Shown piece after piece: positions 17,188 to 58,992 of a stretch of DNA of 64,000 bases. Source of the DNA: a virus (taxonomy: Duplodnaviria; Heunggongvirae; Uroviricota; Caudoviricetes); the IMG/VR virus record IMGVR_UViG_3300034157_000063; one strand, given 5' to 3'. Within the stretch, counting starts at the first letter, position 1. Each line of letters begins with the position of its first letter. The translations under genes and the position numbers were made by a program. The notes beneath the pieces were generated by a model. The model did not search any database. It saw only the letters and a list, made by a program, of their open reading frames with translations, and was not told the DNA's origin.

Positions 17188-17886
17188 ATGGATTTTGATA
17201 ATTTTGTATTTACTAAGCGAAATGATAACTACACGTTATCGCTTCTTGACTACCTGCAGCTTGTTCAGGAATCGAGTCAACATGAATCCATTAGAACACT
17301 AAAATACCATACTCGTAAGGTGGATGTTAATGGCGTTCAAGATATTTCTACACCTGAAATCTATATTCAAACAGAACAACACAAAATCCATGTGTTCAAT
17401 CAAGCTGATACTACGCATGAAGCAGCTTATTCATTTACAGGAGCAGGGAATTTTCTTTATTACATTGCCAAGTATCCTACGATAGATCGTGTTCTCACTC
17501 AAATGGAATTCTTACGCCGTATGCATGATGAGTTGCATTCTAGCATGGGTGTTGACAATCCTTTTCTGGATAACCGCACTAGTAGCTATAAAGCAGTTTT
17601 GAAAAATGTTGATGGTGTTATTAAGTTATTTCATGTGCTCAACTATGACACTGGATTTAGAGCTGTGTTTGATCAATCCTTTAACATTGTTGATGTTTAC
17701 TTTCGTCATCCGAATTTAGAGAAGTTTAGAACACGTTCACTTGAAGATAAAAAAGTTATCTTTGCTTTTTTTAATGTTTACTTTCGAAGCCCTTTGCTGA
17801 GAGAAGAACTTTGCAAAAAGTATGATGAATTATCTTTTGAGGAAATTCGTGATTATCTTACTATTTATAGAATGGTTAATATTTAA
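17188..17886 (+). CDS. Hypothetical protein, MxxI-tail family
   Basis: Start revised to MDFDN (GGGG SD); ends ELSFEEIRDYLTIYRMVNI. Confidence 0.75.
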   Translation: MDFDNFVFTKRNDNYTLSLLDYLQLVQESSQHESIRTLKYHTRKVDVNGVQDISTPEIYIQTEQHKIHVFNQADTTHEAAYSFTGAGNFLYYIAKYPTIDRVLTQMEFLRRMHDELHSSMGVDNPFLDNRTSSYKAVLKNVDGVIKLFHVLNYDTGFRAVFDQSFNIVDVYFRHPNLEKFRTRSLEDKKVIFAFFNVYFRSPLLREELCKKYDELSFEEIRDYLTIYRMVNI

Positions 17887-17951
17887 TAGAAATCAAAAAA
17901 AGTATAATAAGAAAACATCTGTTGAGGCAGATGTTTTTATTTGTTTATTAT

Positions 17952-18611
17952 TTAAAGTGTTATGTCTGGTGCTTTCTTTAATCTTTGATTTCTATCATAA
18001 GCAACAATTGCTTCTTTTGCCATAATATCAAGCAAAGCATGTTCCATTAACATACACAGTGTTTTTGGCAAATAGCGAAATCTATGATCATCATCAAGTA
18101 ATTTTAATTGTTTTTTTGCAATTGAACGGCCTTTTTGTGTCGGTAAGGTAAATTCTCTAGTGTGTAATCTCATTTTAGACAAGAAAAAATCAATATCGAA
18201 TGGACTCAATCGACTGTAATCAGTGGGATCATGTTTAAATACTTCTGTAGTTATTTTTGCAATAGACTCCATAAGGTCTATATAATTAGTTAAAGATCTT
18301 ATCGTTGATGGACTGTAGCTATTAGAAGGTTTAAATAAAGTAGAGAGTAGATGATTAACGTCGCCGCCTGATAATATTTCATGTTTGATATTATCTTCAC
18401 AGGCTACGGATAAGTTATATTGTGCAAATTCTGTATTAAATTGTGACACCAATTCTTCAACAGTCATAGAACCAATACTTTCGCCATCACGAGTTTGAAA
18501 GCCATTATTCTGATAGGCTGCTGTTCGCCTCTCAATATGTCGTGTTAATGTGTGCTTAAAGAAACTGCAGTTTAATTGTTCCTGTTCTAATTGATAGGCT
18601 GTCAACATCAA
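17952..18611 (-). CDS. Hypothetical protein
   Basis: 219-aa ORF with GAGGA SD. Confidence 0.7.
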   Translation of the reverse strand: MMLTAYQLEQEQLNCSFFKHTLTRHIERRTAAYQNNGFQTRDGESIGSMTVEELVSQFNTEFAQYNLSVACEDNIKHEILSGGDVNHLLSTLFKPSNSYSPSTIRSLTNYIDLMESIAKITTEVFKHDPTDYSRLSPFDIDFFLSKMRLHTREFTLPTQKGRSIAKKQLKLLDDDHRFRYLPKTLCMLMEHALLDIMAKEAIVAYDRNQRLKKAPDITL

Positions 18612-18729
18612 TAAATCCTCATTATTTTAACCATTATAGCATAAAATCATTGTGAATTAAAGAAATCCTTTAACTTTACTTTTTGTTTGATTTTTGTTAT
18701 AATAACGCTCTATTACAGAGGATTCATAC

Positions 18730-19449
18730 GTGGATAAATTAGAAGTCGCCCAGTTAATCAAATCATACATTTTATCTTTTGAAGATGTGAAGTGTGAAGA
18801 CGATGATGGCTTTTTAGATTTATACATTCATGAAAAGGCTAAGCCGGGTGGTTTGATTCATTTAAACAATGAAAATGATTATACGAATAAAACACTATTC
18901 AGTTATGAGAAATATGAAAACTATCATATCTTTTTTATGAACACTGCCGGTGGTGTAAATAATCTCTTCAAAATAGTGGATATGGCGACTCATCCATCTA
19001 GTAAAAATGCATTAACATACCATGAACGCATTCTGAGTAATTTAAAATTTGTTCGTTCTTATTGTTCTGCATTGGAAGAAGCAATCCCGACCAAATACAA
19101 GTTACTGCAAGATGAACGACTGGATAGGTTTAGAATTGATCTTGATGACACTTCTGGTCATTTTGTGATTAGTCATACTACGGCCTTCTTTTCATACCAT
19201 TATTCGGCTGTTTATGTGACCTTTATATTTGACAAAAATCATAATTTGATTAATATAGGATTTGAAGATTCTCATGTAAAAGAAGTCATGAAAGACTTAA
19301 CTATTGAGAAAAAAGCCAAAGCTTTTGCTTTTTTTATTGATTACTTTATTGAGAAAGATTTTAGAGAACTTGTTAATATAGATTATAAAGAAGTCAATAT
19401 AGATAATCTTGATGATTATTTGTTATTGCACGCCATGAAAGAGGTTTAA
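18730..19449 (+). CDS. Hypothetical protein, MxxI-tail family
   Basis: GAGGA SD plus GTG start; ends DDYLLLHAMKEV. Confidence 0.75.
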   Translation: MDKLEVAQLIKSYILSFEDVKCEDDDGFLDLYIHEKAKPGGLIHLNNENDYTNKTLFSYEKYENYHIFFMNTAGGVNNLFKIVDMATHPSSKNALTYHERILSNLKFVRSYCSALEEAIPTKYKLLQDERLDRFRIDLDDTSGHFVISHTTAFFSYHYSAVYVTFIFDKNHNLINIGFEDSHVKEVMKDLTIEKKAKAFAFFIDYFIEKDFRELVNIDYKEVNIDNLDDYLLLHAMKEV

Positions 19450-19450
19450 C

Positions 19451-20104
19451 ATGTATTTTGTAGATGGAATGGATTTGTCAACTATATTTAAGGGAGTATT
19501 TCCTTATTATACCCAAGGATTTAGGCTAAAAAAGATTAATCGCAGTGAGTTAGAAGGTTATGATGCCTTGAAAGAATCTCTTTCTACACCTTTGGATCAT
19601 AATATGTCTTACGGTAGGTTGGTTAATAATTTTGGCGAAGAGTTAGGAATGTTTCAAACTGTGAATAATAAGACTAAAGTCTTATTTAACAGCGAATTCA
19701 TTTTCTCTCAGATAAACAATGTTGACAAGACGGTTAATCATTATTACTTGACGTTTGCTTTTTACTTGAATAACGATTTCACCTTTAAATCATTTAGTTT
19801 TGATTTTTTGTATTCATTTAAACCCTACACTGACAATGGTTCTGCAAAGGATAGGTATAGTAATCATATTGAGCTTATTTTAGAAGATGACTTTGTAAAA
19901 ATTACTACAGATGAAGTCGATTATGATTTAAAGGGAACCCATACTATATTTGAAATTTTACCTGATTTTGTGTTGGCATGTATTTATAATGCGAATAATG
20001 ATATTGTAAAGGATGACCATTTTGATCTTAATCTTATCCTTCAAGGTCAAAAAATTGATGATAAAAAACGATGTAAAGATTTGCTTAGTATGATCTCTTA
20101 TTAA
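19451..20104 (+). CDS. Hypothetical protein, MxxI-tail family
   Basis: Starts 1 nt after the previous stop; ends KDLLSMISY. Confidence 0.75.
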   Translation: MYFVDGMDLSTIFKGVFPYYTQGFRLKKINRSELEGYDALKESLSTPLDHNMSYGRLVNNFGEELGMFQTVNNKTKVLFNSEFIFSQINNVDKTVNHYYLTFAFYLNNDFTFKSFSFDFLYSFKPYTDNGSAKDRYSNHIELILEDDFVKITTDEVDYDLKGTHTIFEILPDFVLACIYNANNDIVKDDHFDLNLILQGQKIDDKKRCKDLLSMISY

Positions 20105-21067: not shown

Positions 21068-21826
21068 ATGAAAATTCCTTTATTATTGCTGCAGATCTGG
21101 CCGTTATTTAAATTTGAAGTTATTCGAGCTTTTAACTTTGTTAAAAGTAATGATGTTGCTAAATTATTTTTGCTTATTTGTATTACAATGAATTCGTCAA
21201 AATTGACATCAGATGTTGTGAATGATTATTTAATTCTAACAGAATTATCAGTAAAAGCTGTATCCTTGGTTTTAAGTTTTTTTGTTTTTGTTGGTATGAT
21301 GATTACGTTGTATTACTTGAGTTTTAATTTAAAGAAAACGATTTATCAAATGCCTAAAAAATATTATATTTTTTTCATTAGTGTCAATTCTATAAAACTA
21401 TTAATGACTTTTTGTACACCTAATAATTTTATAGCCATTATATCTTTTGAGGTTTTTTATATTTTTGTAATGAGTGCGTTTGTTTTTGATTTAAGAAAAA
21501 TAGCTTTACAACAACGTGAAAATTTGCATGTATCTATTTTTAATGTTGTTCATAAGAATACTGGTTTGGTTATAATCGCCTCTACACCAGATAGTTTTTT
21601 TTCTAAGAGAAATAAGATTTTTACTAATTACATGATAGGCTTCAATAAAAACATTAAAACATGGTTAGTATTAGGTGTTTTTATAAAAATGGATAAAGAA
21701 GGTATTTATTTAAAAAATATTTATATGACGTATAGTGAAGTTGTCATGTTTAATAATAGTTTCGATAAAAAAATAATTGATTACACCAAGAATGAATTAG
21801 ATACTGTCATTATGTATTTCATTTGA
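21068..21826 (+). CDS. Membrane protein, MxxI-tail family
   Basis: Several hydrophobic segments; ends KKIIDYTKNELDTVIMYFI. Confidence 0.7.
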   Translation: MKIPLLLLQIWPLFKFEVIRAFNFVKSNDVAKLFLLICITMNSSKLTSDVVNDYLILTELSVKAVSLVLSFFVFVGMMITLYYLSFNLKKTIYQMPKKYYIFFISVNSIKLLMTFCTPNNFIAIISFEVFYIFVMSAFVFDLRKIALQQRENLHVSIFNVVHKNTGLVIIASTPDSFFSKRNKIFTNYMIGFNKNIKTWLVLGVFIKMDKEGIYLKNIYMTYSEVVMFNNSFDKKIIDYTKNELDTVIMYFI

Positions 21827-30292: not shown

Positions 30293-30376
30293 AGAGAGCT
30301 TAGGCTCTTTTTTGTTGTTTAAATTTTGTGTTTGTAGTATAATACATCTTATTATATTGCTCATATGGAAATTATC

Positions 30377-31078
30377 ATGAACGAAAAAACTTTAACAGAC
30401 GATCTTGCTTTATTTAAAGTTCGTGCCACCAATATTATGGCTGATTTTTTTATAAAATGGCAATCATCATTTGTTTATGATAAGGTTTATTTTGATGAAG
30501 CACAAATTCAACCTACCAGTCTTAAAGAAAGAATTTACACACTTAGTGTTAAGGTGGTTGATGAAAATAGATTTAAAGAAACGAAAGTGGTGGTCACAGG
30601 TAATTTAGATGATGATGATGAGTTGTCTCATCGTTATACAACTACATTGACAGTCAATGGTGATAAGATTCATGGTTTTAAAAGAGTCGATTTTGATCCA
30701 TATTCATTGGGTTCTGATTTTAAAAAATTCTATGCAACATTTTTTAATTATAATGTGTTGGATAATCGTTACAATAGATTTTTTCTTACTTTTGATGAAC
30801 AAGCTAATATATCAAATATTCGCATTTTTTTTGACGCATCAAAAGATAACAATACTTTTACAATTGACCGATTAATTTATAATTATGAAGATATTATTAT
30901 TTTAAGCCGTTACAATCTTCTGAATTCTGGTTTCAGTAGTTATTGTAATTTTAAATTTCTTTGGTACTGCACGAATATTAGAAATGTTATTAACGAACAA
31001 AATTTGATAGATGCATATCAGGAATATATCAAAAATATGGATAGCTATCATATATTGCTTAAAATGGGAAAAATTTAA
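30377..31078 (+). CDS. Hypothetical protein, MxxI-tail family, tandem paralogue A1
   Basis: W..SF..DK.YFDE and FLW..T.I motifs; ends HILLKMGKI. Confidence 0.8.
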   Translation: MNEKTLTDDLALFKVRATNIMADFFIKWQSSFVYDKVYFDEAQIQPTSLKERIYTLSVKVVDENRFKETKVVVTGNLDDDDELSHRYTTTLTVNGDKIHGFKRVDFDPYSLGSDFKKFYATFFNYNVLDNRYNRFFLTFDEQANISNIRIFFDASKDNNTFTIDRLIYNYEDIIILSRYNLLNSGFSSYCNFKFLWYCTNIRNVINEQNLIDAYQEYIKNMDSYHILLKMGKI

Positions 31079-31182
31079 TAAGATAAGTAGATTACACTTC
31101 AAGAGCTTTGGCTCTTTTTTTATTGAACTTATTTTCATTTTGTAGTATAATACGGCTATTATATTGAGCTTGGAGAGTGACT

Positions 31183-31878
31183 ATGACTGAAGAAATAAGT
31201 GCGACTGAAGTGGAAGTATTCAAAAAGCGAGCATCTGAAATTTTGGATAATTTTTGTAAAGAATGGCAGCATTCATTCTATAATGACAAAATCTACTTTG
31301 ATGAATATCAACTTGATTTCCCAAGTGCAGGCGTGTATACATGGAAAGTTATTGCTGTTAATATATCAACGCTAAAAAAGATGGCTATTGTGGTGACAGG
31401 TAACTTAGGAAAGGCTGATTCCTTACAACATGTTTATACGATTTCAGTGGCAGTTGATGGTGCGAGAGTTCGTGATTTAAAAAAAGATGATTTTAACCCG
31501 CTTGAGCTTCGTGATAAGTTTCATACCTTTTATACATCTATCCTTAATTATAAAGAAGTTGATAAACATGCTTATGGTTTATATCTTGTCTTTGATGAAG
31601 ACGCTAAAATTTTAAGTGCCAACACGACATTTACTATTTATAAAAACGATGAAGCCTGTCGTGCAGACCATTTTGTCTACCATGTCAGTGATTTAGATGT
31701 TTTAATCGGTTACAACCTTGTTCATACAGGTATTATTAACTATCGTAATTTTACATTTCTATGGAATCACACCAATATTCGGATTGTAATGAATGAAGGT
31801 GTTTTTTTTAATGCTTACAAGCTATACACTGAGGATATTGAACGTTACCATTCATTACTTCAAATGGAACGAATTTAA
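31183..31878 (+). CDS. Hypothetical protein, MxxI-tail family, tandem paralogue A2
   Basis: Same motifs as A1; ends HSLLQMERI. Confidence 0.8.
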   Translation: MTEEISATEVEVFKKRASEILDNFCKEWQHSFYNDKIYFDEYQLDFPSAGVYTWKVIAVNISTLKKMAIVVTGNLGKADSLQHVYTISVAVDGARVRDLKKDDFNPLELRDKFHTFYTSILNYKEVDKHAYGLYLVFDEDAKILSANTTFTIYKNDEACRADHFVYHVSDLDVLIGYNLVHTGIINYRNFTFLWNHTNIRIVMNEGVFFNAYKLYTEDIERYHSLLQMERI

Positions 31879-31985
31879 TATTATGAATGATATTGCTATT
31901 TAAAAAGAGCTTCGGCTCTTTTTTTGTTGATTTTTATTGCTGTTTTGTAGTATAATAGTGCAATATATGCCTCTTGGAGATTGTG

Positions 31986-32684
31986 ATGAGTCAGGTTACT
32001 TTAACAACAGAAGAAACTTCTATTATCAAAGCAAATGCAGACAATGTGCTTGCTCGATTTTATAGTAAGTGGAAATTCGCCTTTTCTAACGATAAAATCT
32101 TCTTTGATGAAGCCACAACAGATTTGAACCCTGATTATCATCATGTTCTGAAAACAACAGGCGTTAATGTAAGTACTCTTAAGAAGTTTTCTATTATTGT
32201 TTCCGCAAACATTAGGTCTGGAATTTATACTGAACATTATTACAATATCTATATGAGTGTTGATGCTGACAGTATCAACAACTTTAAAACAAAAGACATT
32301 GACCCAGAAAAACTCAGAAATGACTTTCAAGCATTTTATCGAAAAGTTATTGGAGATGAATTAAATGAAAATGAAGCGTCTAAATTAATATTTTCTTTTG
32401 ATCATAATGCTGTTTTGTTAAGTATTAAGATGACATTTACTCATTACGAAAATCAGGTAGGTCGGCGGGTTGATCAGTGTCTTTATAGAATTGATGATAT
32501 TGATAATTTACGCAAACGTAATATGGTTCGTTCTGGCGTTGTTAATTTTTGTAATTTTACATTCCTTTGGGAACATACATTAATTGAAGACATTCTGAAC
32601 ACAACTGATTTTTATGAGGCTTATAAAATCTATATTTCAGATATTGAACGTTATCACGATTTAATTCAAATGGAGCGTATTTAA
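31986..32684 (+). CDS. Hypothetical protein, MxxI-tail family, tandem paralogue A3
   Basis: Same motifs as A1; ends HDLIQMERI. Confidence 0.8.
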   Translation: MSQVTLTTEETSIIKANADNVLARFYSKWKFAFSNDKIFFDEATTDLNPDYHHVLKTTGVNVSTLKKFSIIVSANIRSGIYTEHYYNIYMSVDADSINNFKTKDIDPEKLRNDFQAFYRKVIGDELNENEASKLIFSFDHNAVLLSIKMTFTHYENQVGRRVDQCLYRIDDIDNLRKRNMVRSGVVNFCNFTFLWEHTLIEDILNTTDFYEAYKIYISDIERYHDLIQMERI

Positions 32685-32685
32685 T

Positions 32686-33387
32686 ATGACGGACATTAAT
32701 AAAACACTTATTGTTAATGATGAAGATATCATAGAGATGTCTTTTGATGTGTTGAGAGGTATATATGCGAAATGGAAAAATGTTTTTAATCAGTCAATTG
32801 TAAATGTTAATGACTTTAATAGTGTTATCGAAGATGATCGAGTTCAAATTTTTTTTGCTGATGCACAGCCAATAGCTATCAATGTTTCAGCCACTAAAAC
32901 AAGTCTTTTTTATGAAGACCTCAATTATGAAATACTGGCTTGGGTTCGTGAACCATTGGTTAAATTATTTGATACTGATGCACTTAGTATTTATGATCTT
33001 CGTGAAAGATTTTATTTAATGGCTCAAGAGCTGGGTGGTTTTGAATGTGAAAACAAAACACGAGCTAGCAGTGAGTTTTCATTTGATAAGTTTGGTAATT
33101 TAACGAAAGTTAGAGTGATATTTCAAAACCATAAAGATCCTACACTGAGTGATGAGAATTATCAACACCTTTCTGACCATTATATTTATGACATTGATGA
33201 TATAGTTTTTTTGAAAGAAAATGGATTAAATGAACTTTATCAGCCATATTTACGAGACTTCTATTTTTTGTGGGAGCATACACATATTGAAGACATTTTA
33301 ATTGCTGCCGATTTTTTGGCGTCATTTAAGTTGTATGCGGAAGACATTACACGTTATAATTCTTTGATTGCAATGACAAAAATATAA
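32686..33387 (+). CDS. Hypothetical protein, MxxI-tail family, tandem paralogue A4
   Basis: FLWEHT.IEDIL motif; ends NSLIAMTKI. Confidence 0.8.
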   Translation: MTDINKTLIVNDEDIIEMSFDVLRGIYAKWKNVFNQSIVNVNDFNSVIEDDRVQIFFADAQPIAINVSATKTSLFYEDLNYEILAWVREPLVKLFDTDALSIYDLRERFYLMAQELGGFECENKTRASSEFSFDKFGNLTKVRVIFQNHKDPTLSDENYQHLSDHYIYDIDDIVFLKENGLNELYQPYLRDFYFLWEHTHIEDILIAADFLASFKLYAEDITRYNSLIAMTKI

Positions 33388-39827: not shown

Positions 39828-40430
39828 TTAGATGGATGCCATATCAAATATGCTCATTAGCTTGTCAAATTCTTCTTTATTTAAATTTTTGATATATTCT
39901 TCTGAGCATTCTATTTCTATCTTATTAAATGACGTTAACAAAAGATCATATATATTTTTAAAATGATAAGGTTTTTTGTTGGCATGAAGATAACTATAAC
40001 ATTTATCCTTTTTCAAAAAGTTAAAGACTCCGGTGGCCGGAACGATTGAAAAAGTTATATCTATTATTAACCGTTCTATCCATGTCTTTTTATTGTTTGG
40101 ATTTAAATTGTTATAATGATATATTTGATTTGATTCTTCAGTTTGAAACTTATAGACTTGCTCTTTTAATCGCATAATTTTATACATTTCTAATTTTAAA
40201 TCGCAATCATTTATAAATACCTTATTTAAATCTTCAATATTAAATTTTAGAATCTCTCCCAAGTCGATGACACTGTTATTTTCTATATTTTTAATTTGAG
40301 CATAAATATATTTGATTGAAAAATCATCTGGCTTATATCTTTCTACTAGATCAAGAAAGGCCATGTAGTCAATAGAATACACATCATTTAATTTTTTTAT
40401 TAGTTTTTTGCTTATGTTGTAGTTTGACAT
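39828..40430 (-). CDS. Hypothetical protein, MxxI-tail family
   Basis: AGGAGG SD; ends NLNKEEFDKLMSIFDMASI. Confidence 0.75.
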   Translation of the reverse strand: MSNYNISKKLIKKLNDVYSIDYMAFLDLVERYKPDDFSIKYIYAQIKNIENNSVIDLGEILKFNIEDLNKVFINDCDLKLEMYKIMRLKEQVYKFQTEESNQIYHYNNLNPNNKKTWIERLIIDITFSIVPATGVFNFLKKDKCYSYLHANKKPYHFKNIYDLLLTSFNKIEIECSEEYIKNLNKEEFDKLMSIFDMASI

Positions 40431-42718: not shown

Positions 42719-43339
42719 ATGAATGAGCGAAACATTATATTTACGCCTGAAAATATTATTTCAACCTTTGGCCTAGTCATTGATGATCGCTTTCAATATG
42801 ACATTGAACAATCGAATGGTTCTTTTCTTATTTCCTCAAAATTTTCTATTACAAAAAAAAATCAATCTAAAAAGTCCGATGATTGTTTTTCAACTGATAA
42901 TTATGAGGATGTGCTAAATCCTTGTATTGTAGCACTTGTTAATACTAATTTTAATAAAGATGGCTCTTTTACAACCGCTATTGACTTTAATAATCAGGCT
43001 ATCAGCAATTTATTAAAAGTGAGCAATAGATATCTTGAAGTATATAAGCTTATGTATGACATTAAAGAATTTAATAAGTATGATAAAGTTGATCTGGTTT
43101 TCATTGCTGATTATGAATTTACCAATAAGTTAACAATGTCTCATGTTTATTGTCAAAAAATAAAATTTCTTGAATATGTTGACGATTATCAGGGGCCAAT
43201 CGAAACTGATGTTCATTATTTTGTTAATGATTTCTTAAAAAGTTTGGATATTAAGTGCATTGATGAGCATACAGACATGGAGAATCTATATCCACTAATA
43301 GAAATGCAAAGAACAATTAACCATATGGAGAGGATTTAA
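42719..43339 (+). CDS. Hypothetical protein, MxxI-tail family, tandem paralogue B1
   Basis: FT.ENIIS..G start; ends EMQRTINHMERI. Confidence 0.8.
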   Translation: MNERNIIFTPENIISTFGLVIDDRFQYDIEQSNGSFLISSKFSITKKNQSKKSDDCFSTDNYEDVLNPCIVALVNTNFNKDGSFTTAIDFNNQAISNLLKVSNRYLEVYKLMYDIKEFNKYDKVDLVFIADYEFTNKLTMSHVYCQKIKFLEYVDDYQGPIETDVHYFVNDFLKSLDIKCIDEHTDMENLYPLIEMQRTINHMERI

Positions 43340-43341: not shown

Positions 43342-43968
43342 ATGTCATCAATGAACGGGAATAACGTCGTTTTTAGTGCTGAAAATATAATATCGACTTT
43401 AGGTATCAATATTCAAGATGACTATAATATTAAATTTGAACCTGACCCAAGTGCTATTGATATTACGTCGAGATTTATGATTGAAAGCAAATCAAATCCA
43501 TACTCTGGTTTCTACATTGCCAGCGATAACTTTGAGAACAGTGCGACTCCCGGTTATATCGCGTCATTGCCAACCAATTTGACACGAGATGGCGTTGTCA
43601 CAATTAAGCTTGATATGCATTTACCAGAAATGACAAAAATAATGAAACGTGTAAATGATTATATTCAATTTTTTATGGTGATTAATGACCAAAAAGGTTT
43701 CTATGTTCATGAGACAGTTAGATTAGAAATTATGACTGATTATAAGTATACAGATGTTTTGTTGCTTACAAATGTCGAACTTTTTAATTTTGTCCTATAC
43801 TCACCATTAGAAACAAATTATAAGAAAAAAGAAATTAACATTGAAGATTTTGTTAATACTTATCTTTCTAAACTAGGTGTAGATAAGATTGATGCACACA
43901 CTGATGTTGATGCTTTGATGGTATTGGTGAAAATGCAGAAAACACTGGAAGCTATGGTAGCCATATAA
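43342..43968 (+). CDS. Hypothetical protein, MxxI-tail family, tandem paralogue B2
   Basis: FSAENIISTLG; ends KMQKTLEAMVAI. Confidence 0.8.
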   Translation: MSSMNGNNVVFSAENIISTLGINIQDDYNIKFEPDPSAIDITSRFMIESKSNPYSGFYIASDNFENSATPGYIASLPTNLTRDGVVTIKLDMHLPEMTKIMKRVNDYIQFFMVINDQKGFYVHETVRLEIMTDYKYTDVLLLTNVELFNFVLYSPLETNYKKKEINIEDFVNTYLSKLGVDKIDAHTDVDALMVLVKMQKTLEAMVAI

Positions 43969-44032
43969 TTTAAATATCACATTATTGATTATACTTTAGT
44001 ATTAATGTACCTTGTGGTTTTGGAGATTTCTA

Positions 44033-44632
44033 ATGAATAACATTGCTGTTTTTACAGAACAAAATATGATATCAAGCTTAGGCATTGAGACTAATGATGA
44101 CTTTGATGTTGAATTTTTTCGAGAAGACTCTTATGAGCATATGACATCGAGCTTATCTGTTACAGGTAGAGAAAAACAAAGTTATGGACTTTTTATTAAC
44201 AATTTAGAAACAATTAACAAAATATCATCTGTAATAGAATTCGAACCGATGTTAAGCCTTGATGGTGTTATTAAGACTTTTGTTCCTATGAACAATCCTA
44301 AAATAAAAAGTGCTCTCTATTTAATTAATCAATATATCAAAGTATTTATGGCTATTTATAGCGTTGATGAATTTAACAAGTACGATAGTTTTATGTTAAA
44401 GTTGATTGTTGATTACAACAAGGATCTAGAAATTATTAATGTAACCTCTACCACCGATCTTTTTAAATTTTATAGCTGGCATCATGATCTTGTTGAAATT
44501 GAAATTGAATCATATATTAACAATCTACTGAATCAGGTTGGTATTGAATCTCTTAATGAAGATAGTGATATTGAACAAGCCATTGATCTTTTGAAAATGC
44601 AAGAGTTGATCTATGAGATGGATTTAATTTAA
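44033..44632 (+). CDS. Hypothetical protein, MxxI-tail family, tandem paralogue B3
   Basis: FTEQNMISSLG; ends KMQELIYEMDLI. Confidence 0.8.
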   Translation: MNNIAVFTEQNMISSLGIETNDDFDVEFFREDSYEHMTSSLSVTGREKQSYGLFINNLETINKISSVIEFEPMLSLDGVIKTFVPMNNPKIKSALYLINQYIKVFMAIYSVDEFNKYDSFMLKLIVDYNKDLEIINVTSTTDLFKFYSWHHDLVEIEIESYINNLLNQVGIESLNEDSDIEQAIDLLKMQELIYEMDLI

Positions 44633-46284: not shown

Positions 46285-46992
46285 ATGTTGTTATTGATGC
46301 GAAGTCTTCTTGAATCTTGTTTGAAAATGATGACGTTTAGAACTATAAAAAAATACCATTATCGAGTTATTATTGAGCAAATTTTTATGCGTTTAAATAA
46401 ACTCTATAATACAACTGAATATACTTCTTTAAACTATCCAATGAAAGTTTCTGGTAATGTATTTGTTGAGTGTTGTAATCATACCAGTGGTGAAACATTG
46501 ATCTCTTTTGCTATACCATGGGAAGATGGCATAGCTGTAATAAAAAATTTTGATTTAAGTTGTCTAGATTTTTTTAAAGAGCATTTTTGTTACATAACTC
46601 GTTATTCAACAATCAACAATTTCCATTCAGTGGCTTATTTCAATAATGGAAAAATTACTAGATTTTACTTTATTATGACCATATGCTCGGCTTCAGGCCC
46701 GAGAAAAGATAATAATTATATAGAATTATCTATTACTACTGATGATCAATTTCATCTCTTGGAAATAGTAAAAAAATTATGTGTGTACTCTCCTACTTCC
46801 ATTGTTTCCAAACACTTAATTAAAAATAATGTTTCTTTTGATGATGAACTCAAATTAATAAAGCTGAAAGCTCAATCTCAAAATCCAGAAATTAATATAT
46901 TGATACCTGAAATCAATACACCATCAGCCTACGATTTCAATTCAGATGATTTTAACAATCGTTTGTTATTGGTATCAATGCTGGAGAGTTAA
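46285..46992 (+). CDS. Hypothetical protein, MxxI-tail family
   Basis: Ends DFNSDDFNNRLLLVSMLES; start uncertain. Confidence 0.7.
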   Translation: MLLLMRSLLESCLKMMTFRTIKKYHYRVIIEQIFMRLNKLYNTTEYTSLNYPMKVSGNVFVECCNHTSGETLISFAIPWEDGIAVIKNFDLSCLDFFKEHFCYITRYSTINNFHSVAYFNNGKITRFYFIMTICSASGPRKDNNYIELSITTDDQFHLLEIVKKLCVYSPTSIVSKHLIKNNVSFDDELKLIKLKAQSQNPEINILIPEINTPSAYDFNSDDFNNRLLLVSMLES

Positions 46993-47159: not shown

Positions 47160-47711
47160 ATGAAACCTATTTATGTCGCAAATTTCGTGGCTAATCCTGA
47201 TGCTGTGTTCAAAAGATTATTGAACGAGTTAGAATGGAAAAGATACGGAAACAAACCTAGAAAAGAATACTACTGCAACGATCACGATGTGCCTTATAGT
47301 TATGGCAATCCCGAGTTTGCGGATACCTATACTAGAAGTCCTTACAGTGATGACATCTTGGATATCAGATACAAGTTGGAAGAAGAATTGAAATCTATTT
47401 TTGATGTCTGCTTTTTAAATTTGTATGATGACTTTGCCGGTCACATTGGATGGCACGCTGATGACAGTCCAGAAATGGACCCTGACAGACCTATTGTCAC
47501 TGTTAGTTTGGGTGCTGAAAGAGAAATCTGGTTTAAAGAAAGACCTTCTGAAACCAGTTCTAAGGAAGTCACTAAGATTAAGTTAGGACATGGGAGTGCT
47601 TGTATCATGCCAGCCGGTATGCAAGCTACAGACTTACACAGAATCCCTAAGAATGACAGACCTTGTGGTGAAAGGGTTAGTTTGACTTACAGAGGTTATA
47701 AGTTCATATGA
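47160..47711 (+). CDS. AlkB-family 2OG-Fe(II) dioxygenase (ALKBH2/3-like)
   Basis: FLNLY...IGWHADD...VSLGAER...HRIPK...RVSLTYR (HxD...H, RxxxxxR). Confidence 0.92.
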   Translation: MKPIYVANFVANPDAVFKRLLNELEWKRYGNKPRKEYYCNDHDVPYSYGNPEFADTYTRSPYSDDILDIRYKLEEELKSIFDVCFLNLYDDFAGHIGWHADDSPEMDPDRPIVTVSLGAEREIWFKERPSETSSKEVTKIKLGHGSACIMPAGMQATDLHRIPKNDRPCGERVSLTYRGYKFI

Positions 47712-48406
47712 CCGATTTTTTGAAGCGTGTGTTTGATGTTAAATTCACTTGTCAACACGAAGAAGATAAGTTCCTAGCGGATCTCGCTATGGAACTTATT
47801 CGTGTTCATACAGATTGTGTTGTACATGAGCTGATTTCAGTGAAAAAACATATGATTAAATTAAAAAATACACACACAGGTCTTTTTTATTTTGTTTATC
47901 TCTATAAAGTTATTGACTATACTTCTGATGGTCGATACTTCTATAAAGAGCTTTCTTTTGAATTCAACATGTTATTTACTAAACGTCTTCATCTCACCTT
48001 GTCTAATTTCTACAATTACTATTCTAGACGTTATGATGTTGGTTATTTTTCTGAATTGAGAAGTAAAGTGGTATTTTCGAATAACACACAAAGCCTTCAT
48101 TTTAGATTCATCGGTGTTGATGACCATTGCACCAAGTTTATTATTGAAGATGACAAAGTTTGTCAATATAATTATTATGACGCGGAATTAATGTCCACTC
48201 AATTATTAACATTTGCAGAATTTGAAATATTATTTAAATGTTCCATATTGCATGAACATGCTAATCATCTATTGTTGGAGTATATTCCAGAGTTTTTTGG
48301 CCCTCAACAAAAAATGCCTTCTAATGATTCATTAATTGCAAATTTAGCACTGATTGATATTTTGATGTTTACACAAGGATTGTCGGGAATTGATTACACA
48401 TTGTAG
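47708..48406 (+). CDS. Hypothetical protein (possible extended MxxI-family member)
   Basis: ATGA overlap with the AlkB-like gene; IPE...ALIDILM near the C-terminus resembles 46285. Confidence 0.65.
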   Translation: MTDFLKRVFDVKFTCQHEEDKFLADLAMELIRVHTDCVVHELISVKKHMIKLKNTHTGLFYFVYLYKVIDYTSDGRYFYKELSFEFNMLFTKRLHLTLSNFYNYYSRRYDVGYFSELRSKVVFSNNTQSLHFRFIGVDDHCTKFIIEDDKVCQYNYYDAELMSTQLLTFAEFEILFKCSILHEHANHLLLEYIPEFFGPQQKMPSNDSLIANLALIDILMFTQGLSGIDYTL

Positions 48407-49089: not shown

Positions 49090-49791
49090 TTACTCCAAAT
49101 ACATTTCAAATAATTTCAACTCTCTTTTCGTTAATTTCAAAAACTCTTTACCAAACAATTCCATTGTGTGTTTTTCAGATATAACATCATTAAGACCTTT
49201 TTTAAAGTCCATTCTTTTACTGGTTGATACCGTTGTTCCGCCTAACTTTAAAATATATTTCTCAACATATTGTGAACTCAACACATGTTCGTGATCAACT
49301 TTCATTTTGACGTATGATTTATTCAAAATCGCATAATCACCTTTTTCTAACATAACAAAATCTTTATGATGTCCAAATAATTTCGCAACCAATGTAATAA
49401 AATTAGCATTAGCCGGGGTAACTTCGTGTTCACCAGCCGCTGATTGATTATAAAATGAGCGTCTAATGTAATGTCTAGGTATCGTAATGGCTAATATATC
49501 GTCAGTTAATGCCCCTAGAAACTCAACAGTGTATAAATTTCTTGAAGTTTCAATACTGTTATCTATAATGCTATTGTATAATTTCATAGTATTTGACGAA
49601 TTGAATAGCTTCCAGTAAATTTCATATCTTAATTTTCTTTCGACAAGATCAGGCACATTCTCATAATCAGCAATATCTCTTAAAAACTCATTATGATAAG
49701 TTGATAAGTCATCAATAAGAATTTGACTTCTCAATGTATGAGTTATATTTTTCATTAAGGAATCATTTAAAACTATTTTATTCAAGATCAT
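49090..49791 (-). CDS. Hypothetical protein, MxxI-tail family, array C
   Basis: Ends KEFLKLTKRELKLFEMYLE. Confidence 0.75.
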   Translation of the reverse strand: MILNKIVLNDSLMKNITHTLRSQILIDDLSTYHNEFLRDIADYENVPDLVERKLRYEIYWKLFNSSNTMKLYNSIIDNSIETSRNLYTVEFLGALTDDILAITIPRHYIRRSFYNQSAAGEHEVTPANANFITLVAKLFGHHKDFVMLEKGDYAILNKSYVKMKVDHEHVLSSQYVEKYILKLGGTTVSTSKRMDFKKGLNDVISEKHTMELFGKEFLKLTKRELKLFEMYLE

Positions 49792-49797: not shown

Positions 49798-50502
49798 TCA
49801 AGTATTGTTCATTTCTAAGACTAAAATGTCAGCATATGTCAAATCTGTTAACTTTTTATTTAGTAGTGGCAACGTATATTTATTTTCAATCATCTGCACC
49901 AGTTTTTCTTCAAAATCATCTTCACCTGTTGAAGCAATCGTATGATAGTAGCCTTTCACGCCCATAGCTGTGTTAAGTCCAGTAGTATCATAGTAGGTAT
50001 ACCTCATGATGTAGTCTATATTATTATTATTATCAATTTCTATAACATCATATTTTACAACATTGTGTTGGTAATGCATCCGATTTTGATGAGCACCCTC
50101 TTTATGATTTCTAAATATTCTTTGATATAATGTTATCAGTTCATACTCAGATTCTGATATAGCTAATTGAACATTGTTGTTGTAAAAGCTTCTATCAATT
50201 AAACATTCCGGTAACTGTATCTCTGTTGTCAAAAGAACAGAGTTACCTTCAATCGGGAAAGACGTTGACGCTTTTATTATACCACAATCTGGATTGTTTT
50301 CATAGCGAAATGACACTTTTAACATATGAAATGAAAATTTAGTTGTCGTTTCCCATTCTATCTGAATACGATGCCTATCCCTTGTTAAGATTTCTAATAT
50401 TTCATCATCGTAATTACTAAAAATCAACCAATTTTCTTTCTTAAAATTACTGAAGTCTTTTATTAATGTAAACGCTGTCAACATTTCAGTATAGGATGTC
50501 AT
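49798..50502 (-). CDS. Hypothetical protein, MxxI-tail family, array C
   Basis: Ends KKLTDLTYADILVLEMNNT. Confidence 0.75.
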   Translation of the reverse strand: MTSYTEMLTAFTLIKDFSNFKKENWLIFSNYDDEILEILTRDRHRIQIEWETTTKFSFHMLKVSFRYENNPDCGIIKASTSFPIEGNSVLLTTEIQLPECLIDRSFYNNNVQLAISESEYELITLYQRIFRNHKEGAHQNRMHYQHNVVKYDVIEIDNNNNIDYIMRYTYYDTTGLNTAMGVKGYYHTIASTGEDDFEEKLVQMIENKYTLPLLNKKLTDLTYADILVLEMNNT

Positions 50503-51260
50503 ATTAGCCCCATTTGGATAACAGTGATGTCATCTTCGGTTAACTCATTAATTTTTTTTGCAACCATTGGTAAAGTATATTCAGTTTCTAAAAGATACCT
50601 TAATTTTTCTGCAAATAACGCATTGGATGTGTCACTTATTTTCATAAAGTGTCTGGACATTCCCGCATTTATTTGTTTTCTAGCTAATAATTCGTATGAA
50701 ACTAGATATTGAAAATCATCACTTACGCTTATTGTATTTTTTTGTTTTATTGCATGTTTTGTATTATAGGTGATAGGTGACTTAGTATTGAATAATTTAT
50801 TGTATAGTTCAATTAATTGGTAATCTTCTTCTGTGTAAATGTTTATTGTATGTTTTTTTAAAAACGATTCTTTTAAATAAATAGCTTCGATGTCAAATTC
50901 AATGTCAACAGGTATACCATTGCTATCAATGTTCGAAGCTGTTCTAAGCTCTATTGTCTCACCTGTTTTTGGTATTGTTATTGCATAAATAAGTCCAAAA
51001 GTATCCCAACTTTGAATCCAATTGACACTCTTTTCTATTACGCATTCTTTAAGAAGTATGTCTTTTTTATTCTCAAAAAGATAATCTATATGTTCTATTT
51101 TATCGACTGGAACGATGAATTCTATTTGTTCTTTGTTTAAATGAGACAAGTTTTCAACAAAAACACCTTGATTCAGTCTAATCAAGGCTTCTTTTACTTT
51201 CTTCTCTTTTTCCACTTTTACATGATTTCCAAAATCATTAAAATTATTATATTTTCTCAT
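50499..51260 (-). CDS. Hypothetical protein, MxxI-tail family, array C
   Basis: Ends KKINELTEDDITVIQMGLI. Confidence 0.75.
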   Translation of the reverse strand: MRKYNNFNDFGNHVKVEKEKKVKEALIRLNQGVFVENLSHLNKEQIEFIVPVDKIEHIDYLFENKKDILLKECVIEKSVNWIQSWDTFGLIYAITIPKTGETIELRTASNIDSNGIPVDIEFDIEAIYLKESFLKKHTINIYTEEDYQLIELYNKLFNTKSPITYNTKHAIKQKNTISVSDDFQYLVSYELLARKQINAGMSRHFMKISDTSNALFAEKLRYLLETEYTLPMVAKKINELTEDDITVIQMGLI

Positions 51261-51361
51261 ATAAGCCTCATTTTTAAGACGGTTAACTGCTCATTTTCAA
51301 ACAACATTAATCTCCAATCATTTTCAGTTAATATTGAAAGGTCATATATCAATTTCTTCAT
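51257..51361 (-). CDS. 34-aa mini-ORF or remnant consisting only of the MxxI tail
   Basis: Hand translation MKKLIYDLSILTENDWRLMLFENEQLTVLKMRLI*; its TGA overlaps the next ATG (ATGA). Confidence 0.55.
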   Translation of the reverse strand: MKKLIYDLSILTENDWRLMLFENEQLTVLKMRLI

Positions 51362-51394: not shown

Positions 51395-51937
51395 TTATTT
51401 ATAGTGATAAATTCTGACCATCATTAATTCATCATTAGATAATTCGGAAAATTTTTTATCTGCTACCATTGCAACGAGCTTTGTTGTTAACATGTCATCT
51501 AGTATTTCAAAAAAAAATGGTTCTTTAATATTGGTTATTTGATAATCTCCATGATTAACAAGTAAATGTACGGCATAATCTTCGTCATAGGTTGTCTGAT
51601 TTGATTGCTTATCAAACGTGATATTGGAACAGTTTATTAAAACATTCTGTTTGTCTTTTTCAAATGTCATTACAAAAGGTGCGTCTAATACTTTTTCTAA
51701 TTTTCTAATCAACTTAATATTATCATAGTAATGAATAGGTACTTCATTTGAGACAAGTCTATATTTCTTATTAATGGCTGTATAGGGCACTCGATGAACA
51801 CTCACTGCATTACCATCAGTAAAGGTTAACTGGGGCGTATACCCCAGCTCCTTATTTCCTAATAAAATATCATTCGAAGTGAGCGTGTCATTAAAGACTT
51901 CCGCAAACCAGAATAATAAATCTTTTGGACTGTTCAA
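51395..51937 (-). CDS. Hypothetical protein, array C (variant tail)
   Basis: Ends KKFSELSNDELMMVRIYHYK. Confidence 0.7.
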   Translation of the reverse strand: MNSPKDLLFWFAEVFNDTLTSNDILLGNKELGYTPQLTFTDGNAVSVHRVPYTAINKKYRLVSNEVPIHYYDNIKLIRKLEKVLDAPFVMTFEKDKQNVLINCSNITFDKQSNQTTYDEDYAVHLLVNHGDYQITNIKEPFFFEILDDMLTTKLVAMVADKKFSELSNDELMMVRIYHYK

Positions 51938-54525: not shown

Positions 54526-55065
54526 TTAGATTAAAGATTTCAACAACGGTGTTGGATCAAGTAAATATTCTGGCTTATCTGTGTGTAATGTCCATTCTGT
54601 AATAGGTGTAACAGCTTCTGGTTGATACATTTCAATATGCAACATTGCCATCGGGCGACCTTTGTCTTTTAATAGAACGGTTCTAATATGACCAATCACT
54701 TCACCTGCTTTGACAACGTAGCCTTCTTTCATGTGTTCTGCAGGAATAAGTTCTCCATAGTTAATAATGTAACCATCATGCTCAATAAAGATAGAATAGG
54801 TATTGTTCCACCAAGGAGTGTTAGCAATTTCACCTGTGAATGGGATTATTTTGCGAATGATACCCTTTTCAATAGCAACCACATCGTCACCTTCTTCAGC
54901 ATACAGATCAACACCTTCATGAATATGGTTCTTACGCACATAGCCAAATGACCCCGGATGAGGTGCAACGGGAATTTCAGTTGTTTCTTTATATGAAAGA
55001 AGAAATGCTGTATTGCTATCATTAATGGTGATGTTATCTTTTTTCAAAGGAAAATATCTTAACAT
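54526..55065 (-). CDS. M23-family peptidase-like protein
   Basis: HEGVDL (HxxxD), V.AG.VIG, LHIE, DPTPLL. Confidence 0.8.
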   Translation of the reverse strand: MLRYFPLKKDNITINDSNTAFLLSYKETTEIPVAPHPGSFGYVRKNHIHEGVDLYAEEGDDVVAIEKGIIRKIIPFTGEIANTPWWNNTYSIFIEHDGYIINYGELIPAEHMKEGYVVKAGEVIGHIRTVLLKDKGRPMAMLHIEMYQPEAVTPITEWTLHTDKPEYLLDPTPLLKSLI

Positions 55066-56693: not shown

Positions 56694-56921
56694 TTAGCTC
56701 TGTTTCGACAGAGCTTTTTGTTTTTCTAAGGCTATTAGCATTTCAAGCTTATTTAAGTGGAGATGAAGCCCGCCTGCAGAATCTGTTCCACATGCTGAAC
56801 AATGAACCATTCTGAATAAATACGTGATTCTTTTGTCAGTTTTTAACTTTTTCATATGGATAATTTCAGCCAATGTATTTAAAGTACCGCAGATTGTACA
56901 TTCTTCGTCCATTTCATTCAT
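56694..56921 (-). CDS. Small CxxC...CxxC zinc-finger protein
   Basis: CTICG...CSACG; AGGTG SD. Confidence 0.65.
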   Translation of the reverse strand: MNEMDEECTICGTLNTLAEIIHMKKLKTDKRITYLFRMVHCSACGTDSAGGLHLHLNKLEMLIALEKQKALSKQS

Positions 56922-57058
56922 ATCTTCACCTTTTAATTTGATGTCATTATAGTAATGTATCGCCTTTTCGTCAAGTTAACTGATCATAATTTATTTGTTA
57001 TTCATAGTCTTTTGTGGTATAATTTCGTCAACTTATAAACATAGGATATTTACTAATT

Positions 57059-57757
57059 ATGATTGATTATCATGTAGAAAAGAAATATGAATTGCCAAAA
57101 CGTTTCTTTGGTAAGTTTCCAAGTGAAAAATGGGATGAAATGATTGCCGATATCAATGATGACATAAATTATGAAGAAGCTAATGCTAAAATCATCAGCT
57201 TTATGACACAACTTAAACCTATTTTTGAAGGTGGTAAGGGATATCGTGTAAAAATATATAAATCATGCACACCCGCTTATAATAACCATGTGACGGTTTC
57301 AACTTTTAATATTGAAATATATTTGGATAAACAACGTATTGTTGAATTTGACTATTTTCCACTACGTTCTGATGGTTTGCCTAGTATTCATGACTATTAT
57401 ACTTTTTGGATTGATAGTACATTGTTTAACAAACAGTTATTGATTAAAAATTTGTATCATTTCAATGATGATTTCAAAATTGAATTTGTTAATCACATTT
57501 TCTTTAATTCTGGTTTTACAATTGATGCTGTGAGTGAACGAATTATTACTAAGGTTAGAACTCGAATCAAAGTAGATGGCAAAACCCGCGATGTTGCAGA
57601 TCTAAATTATGACTTTGAATCATTGTGTCATGATCTTATGAAAGAACCTAAGAAAGTCGTTCATGCCCTTTATTTTAGAAATAATGAAGTAACCTATGAA
57701 GACTTTATCAACAACGAAAAAGATTCACATGTACTATCAGCAATGGTTAATATTTAA
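57059..57757 (+). CDS. Hypothetical protein, MxxI-tail family
   Basis: Ends SHVLSAMVNI. Confidence 0.75.
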   Translation: MIDYHVEKKYELPKRFFGKFPSEKWDEMIADINDDINYEEANAKIISFMTQLKPIFEGGKGYRVKIYKSCTPAYNNHVTVSTFNIEIYLDKQRIVEFDYFPLRSDGLPSIHDYYTFWIDSTLFNKQLLIKNLYHFNDDFKIEFVNHIFFNSGFTIDAVSERIITKVRTRIKVDGKTRDVADLNYDFESLCHDLMKEPKKVVHALYFRNNEVTYEDFINNEKDSHVLSAMVNI

Positions 57758-57768
57758 TAGGAGTTATT

Positions 57769-58992
57769 ATGTTGTTTGATCATTTAAAAGTAAATAAAGC
57801 TGATTTTAAAGAATTGTTATCTTCTAAACACTTTAAATTCAATGAAATTCCTATTGTTGATGATTATTTTTCACTGGACCCAGTAAAAGAAAAAGGCTAT
57901 ATTATTTTAGTAGAGCATCAACTATCTAGCATTATTGGTCTTATATTTTCCAGTATAAAAAAATCGCAATCAGCGACAATAATGCCATACATTGAAGATA
58001 TAGTTTCAGTTTCAGATAAAAATATTCCGTTTTCTATACCTGAAAAAACACATTTATTTTTTCATAATTCTGATAAAGTTGTTGTTTATTTCATATTTAA
58101 AGATAGTAAAATTAGTGTAATAATAAAAGACCTTTTACATATTATTATTGATGACACTGATGTTGTTAATTTATCCATCTCAGGATTTACATTATCTTTC
58201 AAGGATACGTTGAGATTTGACAAATTTTTACAATTGCTTCACGAAAACAATAAAGCGTATTTTGAGAGAAATTATGACTTGCCTTACACTGTTGAAAACA
58301 TTGCTAACATTAAGAAAATTATTAACACTAAATACAACATCAATGCAGTTAATTATCAAGATTCAGTTAATAAAAAATATAATCAAACAAAAATTGCCCA
58401 ACATATGAATGAACATTATGTAGGTGTTATGCTTTCATCCGTTGTTAACAATAATATATCTCTGAGTTTGTTGGTCACTGAACCAACAGTTGACATGTCA
58501 AGGAAACTTAATTCTGATGGCAAGTTTTCAGGCTGTGAACGTATTACCTTTCCAGTTAATAATTTGAATAAAGCAGAAAAGCTTTTCGATCATATATTAA
58601 TCAATGAATGGTCAAAACAAACACTGCAAATGGTTAATGCAATGATTTTGTATCAATCAGCGATTAATGGCGTCACCATTAAACATGTTTCAGTAGTCAT
58701 GCCTAAGCTGTATGAAGATAAAAAGAACCTTAGTAGCTTTGAATTGTTTAATGTGGTATCGGAAGCTGATGTTTATTTTGATAATCAACAACACTTTAAG
58801 ATTATTTTTGGTTTAAATATAAAAATTCAGGTTAAGGATGGTATTAAAATTGTTTATGACCATGAATTTAAGACTTTGGATGAGGCTTATGTTCATTTTA
58901 TTGATTATTTTAGAAAACGTATTATAAAGAAGATACCTTCTAGTGACATTAATAATAATACATTTAAATTGTTATCAATGATCAATATCTAA
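57769..58992 (+). CDS. Hypothetical protein, MxxI-tail family (407 aa)
   Basis: AGGAG SD; ends TFKLLSMINI. Confidence 0.75.
   Translation: MLFDHLKVNKADFKELLSSKHFKFNEIPIVDDYFSLDPVKEKGYIILVEHQLSSIIGLIFSSIKKSQSATIMPYIEDIVSVSDKNIPFSIPEKTHLFFHNSDKVVVYFIFKDSKISVIIKDLLHIIIDDTDVVNLSISGFTLSFKDTLRFDKFLQLLHENNKAYFERNYDLPYTVENIANIKKIINTKYNINAVNYQDSVNKKYNQTKIAQHMNEHYVGVMLSSVVNNNISLSLLVTEPTVDMSRKLNSDGKFSGCERITFPVNNLNKAEKLFDHILINEWSKQTLQMVNAMILYQSAINGVTIKHVSVVMPKLYEDKKNLSSFELFNVVSEADVYFDNQQHFKIIFGLNIKIQVKDGIKIVYDHEFKTLDEAYVHFIDYFRKRIIKKIPSSDINNNTFKLLSMINI

Follow-up and report, generated by a model that had tools for sequence, protein, structure and literature searches.

Why should many proteins encoded by one stretch of DNA, most of them without detectable similarity to each other, carry a methionine at exactly four residues from the chain end? 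The question is raised by a stretch of 64,000 nucleotides from the IMG/VR virus record IMGVR_UViG_3300034157_000063 (Caudoviricetes), which is part of an uncultured bacterial DNA element of ~1.9 million bases; the whole stretch is referred to here as the window. An earlier sequence-only reading of the window listed 19 open reading frames (ORFs) with Met at position -4 (the last residue being -1) and proposed that variable N-terminal recognition domains are combined with a constant C-terminal docking or sorting peptide. All 18 of the listed full-length ORFs do have Met at this position, and the nineteenth (ending in MRLI) is an ORF of 34 amino acids (aa); the coordinates quoted in that reading mark the lower end of each ORF and do not locate the tail. 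The observation itself is robust; the tail is not explained by any database family or paper that we searched. Our confidence in the mechanism is moderate: we give a probability of about 0.5 to the tail being a common docking helix on a hyper-divergent protein family.

Two related sequences are used for comparison. One is G001 (IMG/VR record UViG_3300031133_000383; 437,043 bp, 30.9% G+C), which was read whole (pieces L003-L024); the other is L001, a 20.7-kb stretch of a 520-kb Joint Genome Institute contig, which is syntenic with 47-62 kb of the window. Proteins with the tail are called carriers, and the carriers of the window fall into groups A to J.

Enrichment of methionine at position -4

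We observed Met at -4 in 18 out of the 71 non-overlapping window ORFs of at least 80 aa (binomial P = 8e-13; the Met frequency in the window is 2.8%). The enrichment persists when paralogues are collapsed (10 BLAST groups, 63 independent ORFs; P = 1e-5), and comparison by hidden Markov models (HMMs) also gives ten groups, matching the roughly ten independent groups counted in the sequence-only reading. Among the last ten residues, Met at -4 is the most enriched combination of residue and position, with Ile at -1 and Leu at -7 ranking next. The enrichment also extends beyond the window: 102 out of 528 ORFs in G001 have Met at -4 (P = 4e-53). The G001 tail genes are evenly distributed along the record, with no clustering beyond chance. 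Window and G001 together, 93 BLAST-independent families bear the tail.

Met has a single codon, so an ATG at this place is necessarily constant, and the pattern might be suspected to reflect a signal in the DNA (ATG-N6-ATH-stop), paralogy or base composition, or chance. The surrounding nucleotides are variable: ATT, ATA and ATC all serve for the final Ile, the stop codon is TAA or TGA, the codons at -2 and -3 are free, and both the sequence downstream of the tail ORFs and the spacing differ. Because the codons and stop codons vary, we place the signal at the protein level. For the same reasons, together with the variable downstream sequence, we rejected a DNA-level signal and a downstream start or ribosome-binding-site context; the latter had been thought unlikely from the start and is now ruled out. 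In addition, the amino-acid profile reaches ~15 residues upstream, and chance fits neither the P value obtained with paralogues collapsed nor the number of independent families. Explanations at the nucleotide level or by chance are effectively refuted.

A helix locked to the chain end

The motif profile was derived from the 93 families. From -15 to -11 the residues are acidic or Asn/Ser; positions -13, -10/-9, -6 and -3 take generic hydrophobic residues; -7 is Leu/Ile/Val (82%), -5 is Glu/Lys, -4 is Met, and -1 is Ile (39%) or Tyr (20%). The acidic-then-hydrophobic helix that had been noticed before the Met is borne out as a profile. Met at -4 is invariant, whereas Leu, Ile and Val interchange at the other hydrophobic positions of the helix. 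The best explanation of the profile is a tail helix of ~12-15 residues with an acidic or Ser/Thr-capped start, which ends at the free carboxylate. On a helical wheel the information-content moment (Met excluded) points to 318 degrees, with Met at 300 degrees, and the hydrophobic moment points to 173 degrees. Because these directions differ, the best-conserved residues form a Met/Ile/Leu patch, flanked by charges, that lies off the hydrophobic face.

The motif is tied to the end of the chain. A 15-position scoring matrix (cut-off of at least 12 bits) matches 83 out of 119 C-terminal segments, but only five out of 132,440 internal segments; three of the five internal matches are within 1-7 residues of a chain end, and the best one is seven residues before the end of the family F protein encoded at 44012-44632. 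Homologous chains end at the same aligned residue in 34 out of 40 pairs from tail families, as compared to 32 out of 133 pairs from other families (the identity of the compared pairs is 29% and 38%, respectively). Loss of Met and change of length occur together in the group H variant at 51395 (Ile replaces Met, with one extra residue) and in two subclades of family J (Leu with three residues fewer, and Ile with two residues more); in two orthologues (G79597 and G100887) the Met is lost and the length is kept. In all three family F paralogues one more heptad (exactly seven residues) comes after the motif, and Met is present at -11 and again at -4. Based on the matrix scan, the aligned ends, the coupling of Met loss with length change and the heptad of family F, we argue that selection acts jointly on the Met and on how far it lies from the free end.

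Probably one hyper-divergent family rather than a portable tag

Homologues of the carriers are few. A search of 1.84 billion representatives with the family D profile gave only 12 clusters, 11 of which are true members, all ending in h-L-h-x-M-x-x-I; a 2,239-aa match to this profile is a repeat adhesin and was discarded as spurious. Family J has 29 homologue clusters, and 21 of these retain M-[IML]-N-[IF] at the end. The plasmid and phage collections contain no match for the window DNA or the tail proteins, IMG/VR scans using families D and H gave no match, scans of GTDB genomes using family H and a conserved M23-like protein (see below) gave nothing relevant, and the ESM Atlas gave no usable match. 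In literature searches, neither the tail nor these elements turned up.

Carriers have almost no known domains. In G001, 97 out of 99 carriers have no Pfam domain, none matches NCBIfam 20 and at most five match PHROGs; the two with a Pfam domain (a DEDDh exonuclease and a dCMP deaminase) are chance cases of Met at -4. By contrast, the 100 largest non-tail proteins of G001 match 77 Pfam families. 10 window carriers have no match in Pfam-A or PHROGs v4. The recognizable proteins of the window (intimin, chemoreceptor MCP, M3 peptidase, methylase, AlkB, phosphoesterase and PcfJ) are all without the tail, in line with the sequence-only reading, which had noted its absence from recognizable enzymes. 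Carrier lengths are confined to a narrow range (interquartile range 216-269 aa, typically ~240 aa), and there is nothing unusual about their isoelectric points.

AlphaFold models were examined for a group D protein (m7366c2450f99; predicted local distance difference test [pLDDT] 84.5, predicted template modelling score [pTM] 0.80) and a group H protein (m13e7ea19f53b; pLDDT 85.0, pTM 0.75). The two models have one order of elements: a long N-terminal helix, a four-strand meander, helices, a three-strand meander and C-terminal helices. Both end in an 11-residue tail helix (pLDDT ~89-95), which is contiguous with the preceding helices, with no linker and no low complexity. The sequence-only reading had suggested checking whether the folds of the bodies differ; these two share their order of elements, even though the hhalign probability of D versus H is 0.2%. 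The top-50 lists of PDB chains for D and H share five chains (4r80_A, 4fr9_A, 7qh3_A, 4h62_Q and 3k0z_B; ~0.05 would be expected by chance), all of which have helices on a curved sheet, and the lists are rich in small inhibitor and immunity proteins. Fold searches with both models gave no convincing match in PDB or among viral proteins: the Foldseek E values against PDB are 0.04 or higher, one BFVD match has an E value of 8.8e-4 at a template modelling (TM) score of 0.14, and the best VIA Z scores are 7.3 and 3.9.

More distant relationships can be seen in a few cases. Comparison of bodies only by hhalign links four out of 153 pairs of tail families, versus none out of 110 control pairs. At the position of the D array, G001 has a single tail gene of 237 aa, which has no BLAST match to D; a 22-sequence profile aligns it near full length (E = 1.2e-9). 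Orthologous bodies share an identity of 0.30 in tail proteins, compared to 0.48 in their neighbours, and the last 20 residues are similar in the two classes (0.41 and 0.42). Given the lack of known domains, the narrow lengths, the shared architecture of D and H and the orthologue of D that a profile detects, we consider the carriers to be mostly one family and not the hosts of a portable tag. It is probable that most groups are diverged members of one lineage-specific superfamily; the exceptions are the versions with a membrane domain, the half-size versions and those of 400 aa. The picture of a constant tail on variable bodies thus survives as an end-locked constant element, but not as a free docking peptide grafted onto unrelated domains. 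In our reading the C-terminal part is the constant module of a mostly monophyletic, hyper-divergent family.

A possible docking role for the tail

We propose that the tail forms the final alpha-helix, locked to the chain end, in a very large family of cytoplasmic proteins that is lineage-specific and evolves fast; the family would account for about a fifth of the genes in a clade of giant elements and about a quarter of the window proteins. The variable alpha+beta body may act as a binding surface for changing targets; the weak structural neighbours of carrier bodies are small inhibitor- or immunity-like folds. The generic hydrophobic face would pack the helix on its own body, and the conserved face (Ile at -1, Met at -4, Glu/Lys at -5, Leu at -7 and Asp/Asn at -11), together with the chain end, would be offered to one constant cytoplasmic partner. 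With one constant partner for the conserved face, all paralogues would be spokes on one hub, and the outcome of docking could be tethering, delivery or turnover. This extended scheme, with several hundred diversifying proteins per megabase element that plug the Met helix and free end into one cytoplasmic machine, is a tentative one, to which we give somewhat less credit than to the docking helix itself. If it is true, delivery, tethering or turnover might be the task of an apparatus of a new kind, and a fifth of the genes of the element would form one system.

The predicted location of the carriers is consistent with a cytoplasmic partner. Sec-type N-termini were found in two out of 120 carriers and in 35 out of 333 other proteins (P = 0.0015), so carriers are predicted to be cytoplasmic; for a carrier with four membrane segments, a positive-inside reading by eye would also put the tail in the cytoplasm. 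The two elements differ in their tail consensus: 60 out of 96 G001 tails have Glu/Lys at position -5, where window tails mostly have Ala/Ser/Gln, and position -1 is Ile in 13 out of 18 window tails (a small sample), compared to 39 Ile and 19 Tyr out of 96 in G001. Because of this difference, the tails could be co-evolving with an element-specific reader.

The same helix may instead be purely structural or serve self-assembly, as part of the core or of a homo-oligomer interface of one hyper-divergent fold, with no external reader. The high pLDDT, the absence of a linker and the continuity with a C-terminal helical subdomain agree with this explanation, the tail is never seen on foreign domains, and more than half of the helix positions are hydrophobic. 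But structural positions normally swap Leu, Ile, Val and Met, while the Met of the tail is strictly invariant and other core positions of the bodies have drifted beyond recognition. Moreover, the most conserved positions are off the main hydrophobic face, and an equal tail is found on proteins whose N-terminal half is a membrane domain. A structural helix is unlikely in our judgement.

Several observations weigh against a docking helix on a single family. A tail helix modelled at a pLDDT of ~90 without a linker would also fit a purely structural helix, and the information-content moment is weak (0.47). HMM searches, hhalign of D versus H and body-only iterative HMMs leave most groups unlinked. 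The sequence-only reading had named full-length homology of all members within one ordinary family as a refutation; most groups probably form one diverged superfamily, but a common ancestry of all of them is no more than possible: profile and body-only searches fail for most pairs, and only two bodies were modelled. There are also signs of modularity: about a tenth of the carriers have an N-terminal domain of 2-5 membrane segments, and half-size and 400-aa forms of carriers exist. Tail genes have no distinctive upstream k-mer, promoter, strand bias, clustering or location that would mark one regulon. Finally, in G001, which is possibly not a complete phage but a piece of a megabase-sized element, we found no match for a gp45-type clamp (PF09116) or beta clamp (PF00712), for VirB4 (PF03135), for the ABC-exporter membrane domain (PF00664, also without a match in the window), or for an HK97-type capsid or encapsulin-like protein (PF05065), a gp23 capsid or a T4-type terminase. 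The partners suggested in the sequence-only reading (a protease, a chaperone, or an export or packaging system) were not identified. The family negatives in G001 also weaken the explanations that invoke a clamp, secretion or packaging.

One of these explanations is a tether to a sliding clamp, comparable to PCNA-interacting peptides and to the attachment of T4 gp43, gp55 and gp33 to gp45. We know of no precedent for about a hundred clamp ligands per 437 kb, membrane proteins included, which counts against it. The end of the RB69 polymerase, which we take to be ...SLFDMFDF, would match the tail profile at -7, -6, -5, -4, -3 and -1. In the T4 family, gp43, gp55 and gp33 bind the gp45 clamp through short, interchangeable hydrophobic and acidic epitopes at their extreme C-termini (PMC2988020), which are joined to the body by flexible, divergent linkers (PMC2988020). 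These clamp-binding C-termini are the closest known system in form, as the tail is likewise a short hydrophobic and acidic motif at the extreme C-terminus of bodies without sequence similarity. The differences are that T4 has three such ligands and there are about a hundred here, that the T4 epitope is borne on a linker and the tail is an ordered helix without one, and that no clamp family (gp45- or beta-type) is found in G001. We consider a clamp tether highly unlikely.

Another explanation is a translocation, export or packaging signal read by a cytoplasmic ATPase or receptor, as for substrates of type IVB, type I and type VII systems or for capsid cargo. The tail is C-terminal, uncleaved, acidic then hydrophobic and end-locked, its carriers have no Sec signal peptides, and the repertoire is large, fast-evolving and effector-like; several C-terminal export signals depend on the last few residues. 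The Dot/Icm (type IVB) signals of Legionella and Coxiella have a Glu-rich block and a hydrophobic residue at -3 or -4, and their substrates are similar to the carriers in forming a large, fast-evolving repertoire of orphans with an uncleaved C-terminus that is acidic then hydrophobic. Unlike the tail, however, these signals are loose and disordered without an invariant Met, and the effectors vary greatly in size and domains, whereas carriers have an ordered helix, an invariant Met, narrow lengths and no known domains, and the VirB4 family has no match in G001. Type I secretion substrates of the protease/HasA class have a chain end in which hydrophobic residues follow an acidic one. As in carriers, the motif is placed relative to the chain end, an amphipathic helix precedes it and there is no Sec signal peptide, but the motif itself is different, some carriers are membrane proteins and the ABC-exporter membrane domain has no match in G001. 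The type VII signal of the EsxB type, to which the EccC ATPase binds, is a helix at the chain end whose Leu and Met lie within a few residues of the terminus. It resembles the tail as a helical C-terminal element with a conserved Met near the free end, but the register is different, the substrates are WXG100 proteins of ~100 aa, and the system belongs to monoderms, while an outer-membrane intimin is encoded here. Encapsulin or microcompartment cargo peptides are joined by a linker to an enzyme and go with genes for a shell protein; as for such cargo and packaging, PF05065 has no match in G001, nor do the gp23 capsid and T4-type terminase families, and no enzyme bears the tail. Export in general is further opposed by the polytopic membrane proteins among the carriers, by the absence of the tail from any recognizable effector domain and by the models, in which the helix is folded against the body and is not flexible. 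An export or packaging signal therefore seems quite unlikely to us.

The tail could also be a degradation tag or timer, read by ClpXP, Lon, FtsH or the neighbouring M3 peptidase, which would make the repertoire short-lived. The non-polar last residue and the free chain end are compatible with such a tag; an M3 peptidase gene is beside the H array in three elements, and G001 encodes M48, S49 and Hsp70. But the motif is unlike the known C-terminal motifs of ClpX, M3 enzymes act on short peptides, and an ordered helix would be a poor degron. This is very improbable.

The sequence-only reading drew an analogy with F-box/PRANC adaptor repertoires. Like the arrangement proposed here, the poxvirus ankyrin/PRANC (F-box-like) proteins comprise many paralogues in a large genome, whose recognition parts vary while the docking element at the C-terminus stays constant. 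The two systems are alike neither in sequence nor by Pfam match, however, and the two carrier bodies modelled are alpha+beta folds, not repeats; PRANC is a small Skp1-binding domain used in eukaryotic hosts, while the tail is one helix, locked to the chain end, in a bacterial context.

Should the tail prove to be a common handle, a single short motif would place about a fifth of the genes in elements of up to 1.9 Mb in one class of function. These elements are far larger than any described phage and have nearly all of their genes unannotated. The tail used as bait would be a direct experimental route to the hub, and from there to the targets of the variable bodies. It would also be a rare bacterial motif that is read from the chain end with single-residue precision. 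Even as one hyper-divergent family, the carriers would rank with the largest expansions, confined to one lineage, that a mobile element has shown, demonstrating how far orthologues can drift while one helix persists.

Tail-bearing genes of the window

Two genes on the plus strand make up group A. The first (17131..17886) encodes 251 aa from a TTG start, or 232 aa from the ATG at 17188, ends in ...YLTIYRMVNI and has no Pfam or PHROG match; its G001 orthologue (78812-79540) ends in ...YQMLNI. The second, a paralogue (18730..19449), ends in ...LLLHAMKEV, and in its G001 orthologue, which is of equal length, Leu replaces Met. Group B is the next gene (19451..20104, plus strand; 217 aa, ending in ...DLLSMISY). 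Group C (21068..21826, plus strand) has an N-terminal membrane domain with segments that look transmembrane, and a soluble C-terminal part ending in ...ELDTVIMYFI; its counterpart in G001 (252695-253411) has an equal layout and ends in ...ELDTVLMYCH.

Tandem arrays are found in groups D, F and H. Group D has four paralogues on the plus strand (30365-31078, 31177-31878, 31974-32684 and 32686-33387), with the ends MGKI, MERI, MERI and MTKI. Group F has three, also on the plus strand (42665-43339, 43342-43968 and 44012-44632), ending in MERI, MVAI and MDLI. Between these arrays is group E (39828..40430, minus strand; 200 aa, ending in ...SIFDMASI), and group G follows them (46285..46992, plus strand; 235 aa, ending in ...LLLVSMLES, with a G001 orthologue at 274292-274945 that ends in ...VAGMIDY).

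Group H has three paralogues on the minus strand (49090-49791, 49798-50502 and 50499-51260), with the ends MYLE, MNNT and MGLI; L001 has four full-length copies. The 34-aa ORF (51257..51361, minus strand), which ends in ...LTVLKMRLI, adjoins this array. At the syntenic site L001 has a full H paralogue of 233 aa (L001 9303-10004), ending in ...LILLKMEII. The 34-aa ORF is most simply a remnant of a fourth H paralogue, presumably left by a deletion; we rejected it as a stand-alone regulatory tail peptide because of the full-length H gene at this site. Next to it is a half-size variant of the H family (51395..51937, minus strand; 180 aa), which ends in ...MMVRIYHYK; Ile replaces Met here, and the chain is one residue longer. 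This protein matches the H profile over its C-terminal half (E = 5e-4), and its G001 orthologue retains Met at -4 (...TVKMYHE).

Groups I and J are adjacent on the plus strand. Group I (57059..57757; 232 aa) ends in ...VLSAMVNI, and its orthologues in L001 and G001 retain the tail. Group J (57769..58992; 407 aa) ends in ...FKLLSMINI and is the slowest-evolving carrier. A further gene on the plus strand (61738..62445) encodes a derived variant with Ile at -4, ending in ...FRLSEIVDF (...FKLSEIVDY in the L001 orthologue). Of three variants proposed in the sequence-only reading, 51395-51937 and 61738-62445 are true derived forms with Ile for Met, but 47708-48406 is unconvincing.

The window and related giant elements

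The window has a G+C content of 31%. Its recognizable genes are of bacterial type: an inverse-autotransporter intimin, a chemoreceptor (MCP), an M3 peptidase and an N6/N4 DNA methylase. There are also genes for an AlkB-like oxygenase, a phosphoesterase, and PcfJ-like and T5orf172 proteins, with many orphans between them. The contig that bears the window's own copy of family J measures 1,917,244 bp, and another, of 1,843,594 bp, bears a copy with 65% identity to it; the replicon is therefore megabase-sized in two assemblies. The carriers belong to a clade of AT-rich giant bacterial elements, represented by contigs of 0.44, 0.52, 1.84 and 1.92 Mb.

Positions 1-62445 of the window are collinear with 69-112 kb of G001 throughout. 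Non-tail genes share 25-75% identity between the two, and tail genes are the fastest-evolving class; their copy number also differs between elements (e.g. four D genes in the window and one in G001). The M3 peptidase gene adjoins the H array in all three related elements. Recognizable genes of G001 include those for Hsp70, GatA/B, several aminoacyl-tRNA synthetases, NAD salvage, TilS, ligases and transposases, as well as M3, M48 and S49 peptidases; G001 also carries seven paralogues of the DEDDh exonuclease. The G001 record is labelled as a 98%-complete virus, yet it has no match to the HK97/gp23 capsid or T4-type terminase families.

The largest G001 ORF encodes 778 aa (L012 11520-13853, minus strand). 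This orphan is ~45% identical to hypothetical proteins of the Xanthomonas jumbo phages XacN1 and Xoo-sp13, and is the sole link to cultured phages that we found. These phages were set aside as a lead: in a 42-kb stretch of XacN1, 0 out of 47 ORFs have Met at -4.

The M23-like protein used in the scans above (54526-55065, minus strand; 179 aa) has H-x-x-x-D and H-x-E motifs and was assigned to the M23/LytM type by eye. It is 72-82% identical across the three related elements, and its gene is among the best-conserved ones here. Two large orphans are encoded next to each other on the minus strand (3869-5560, 563 aa; 5557-7479, 640 aa) and end in ...NGPN and ...NGPL. The corresponding region of G001 is 70264-73787; the orthologue of the 563-aa orphan there ends in ...NGPS, and the 640-aa orphan is one of a seven-member family across the window and G001. 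Many other non-tail proteins have Lys-rich ends (e.g. ...KFKP, ...KIKPS and ...PIKP).

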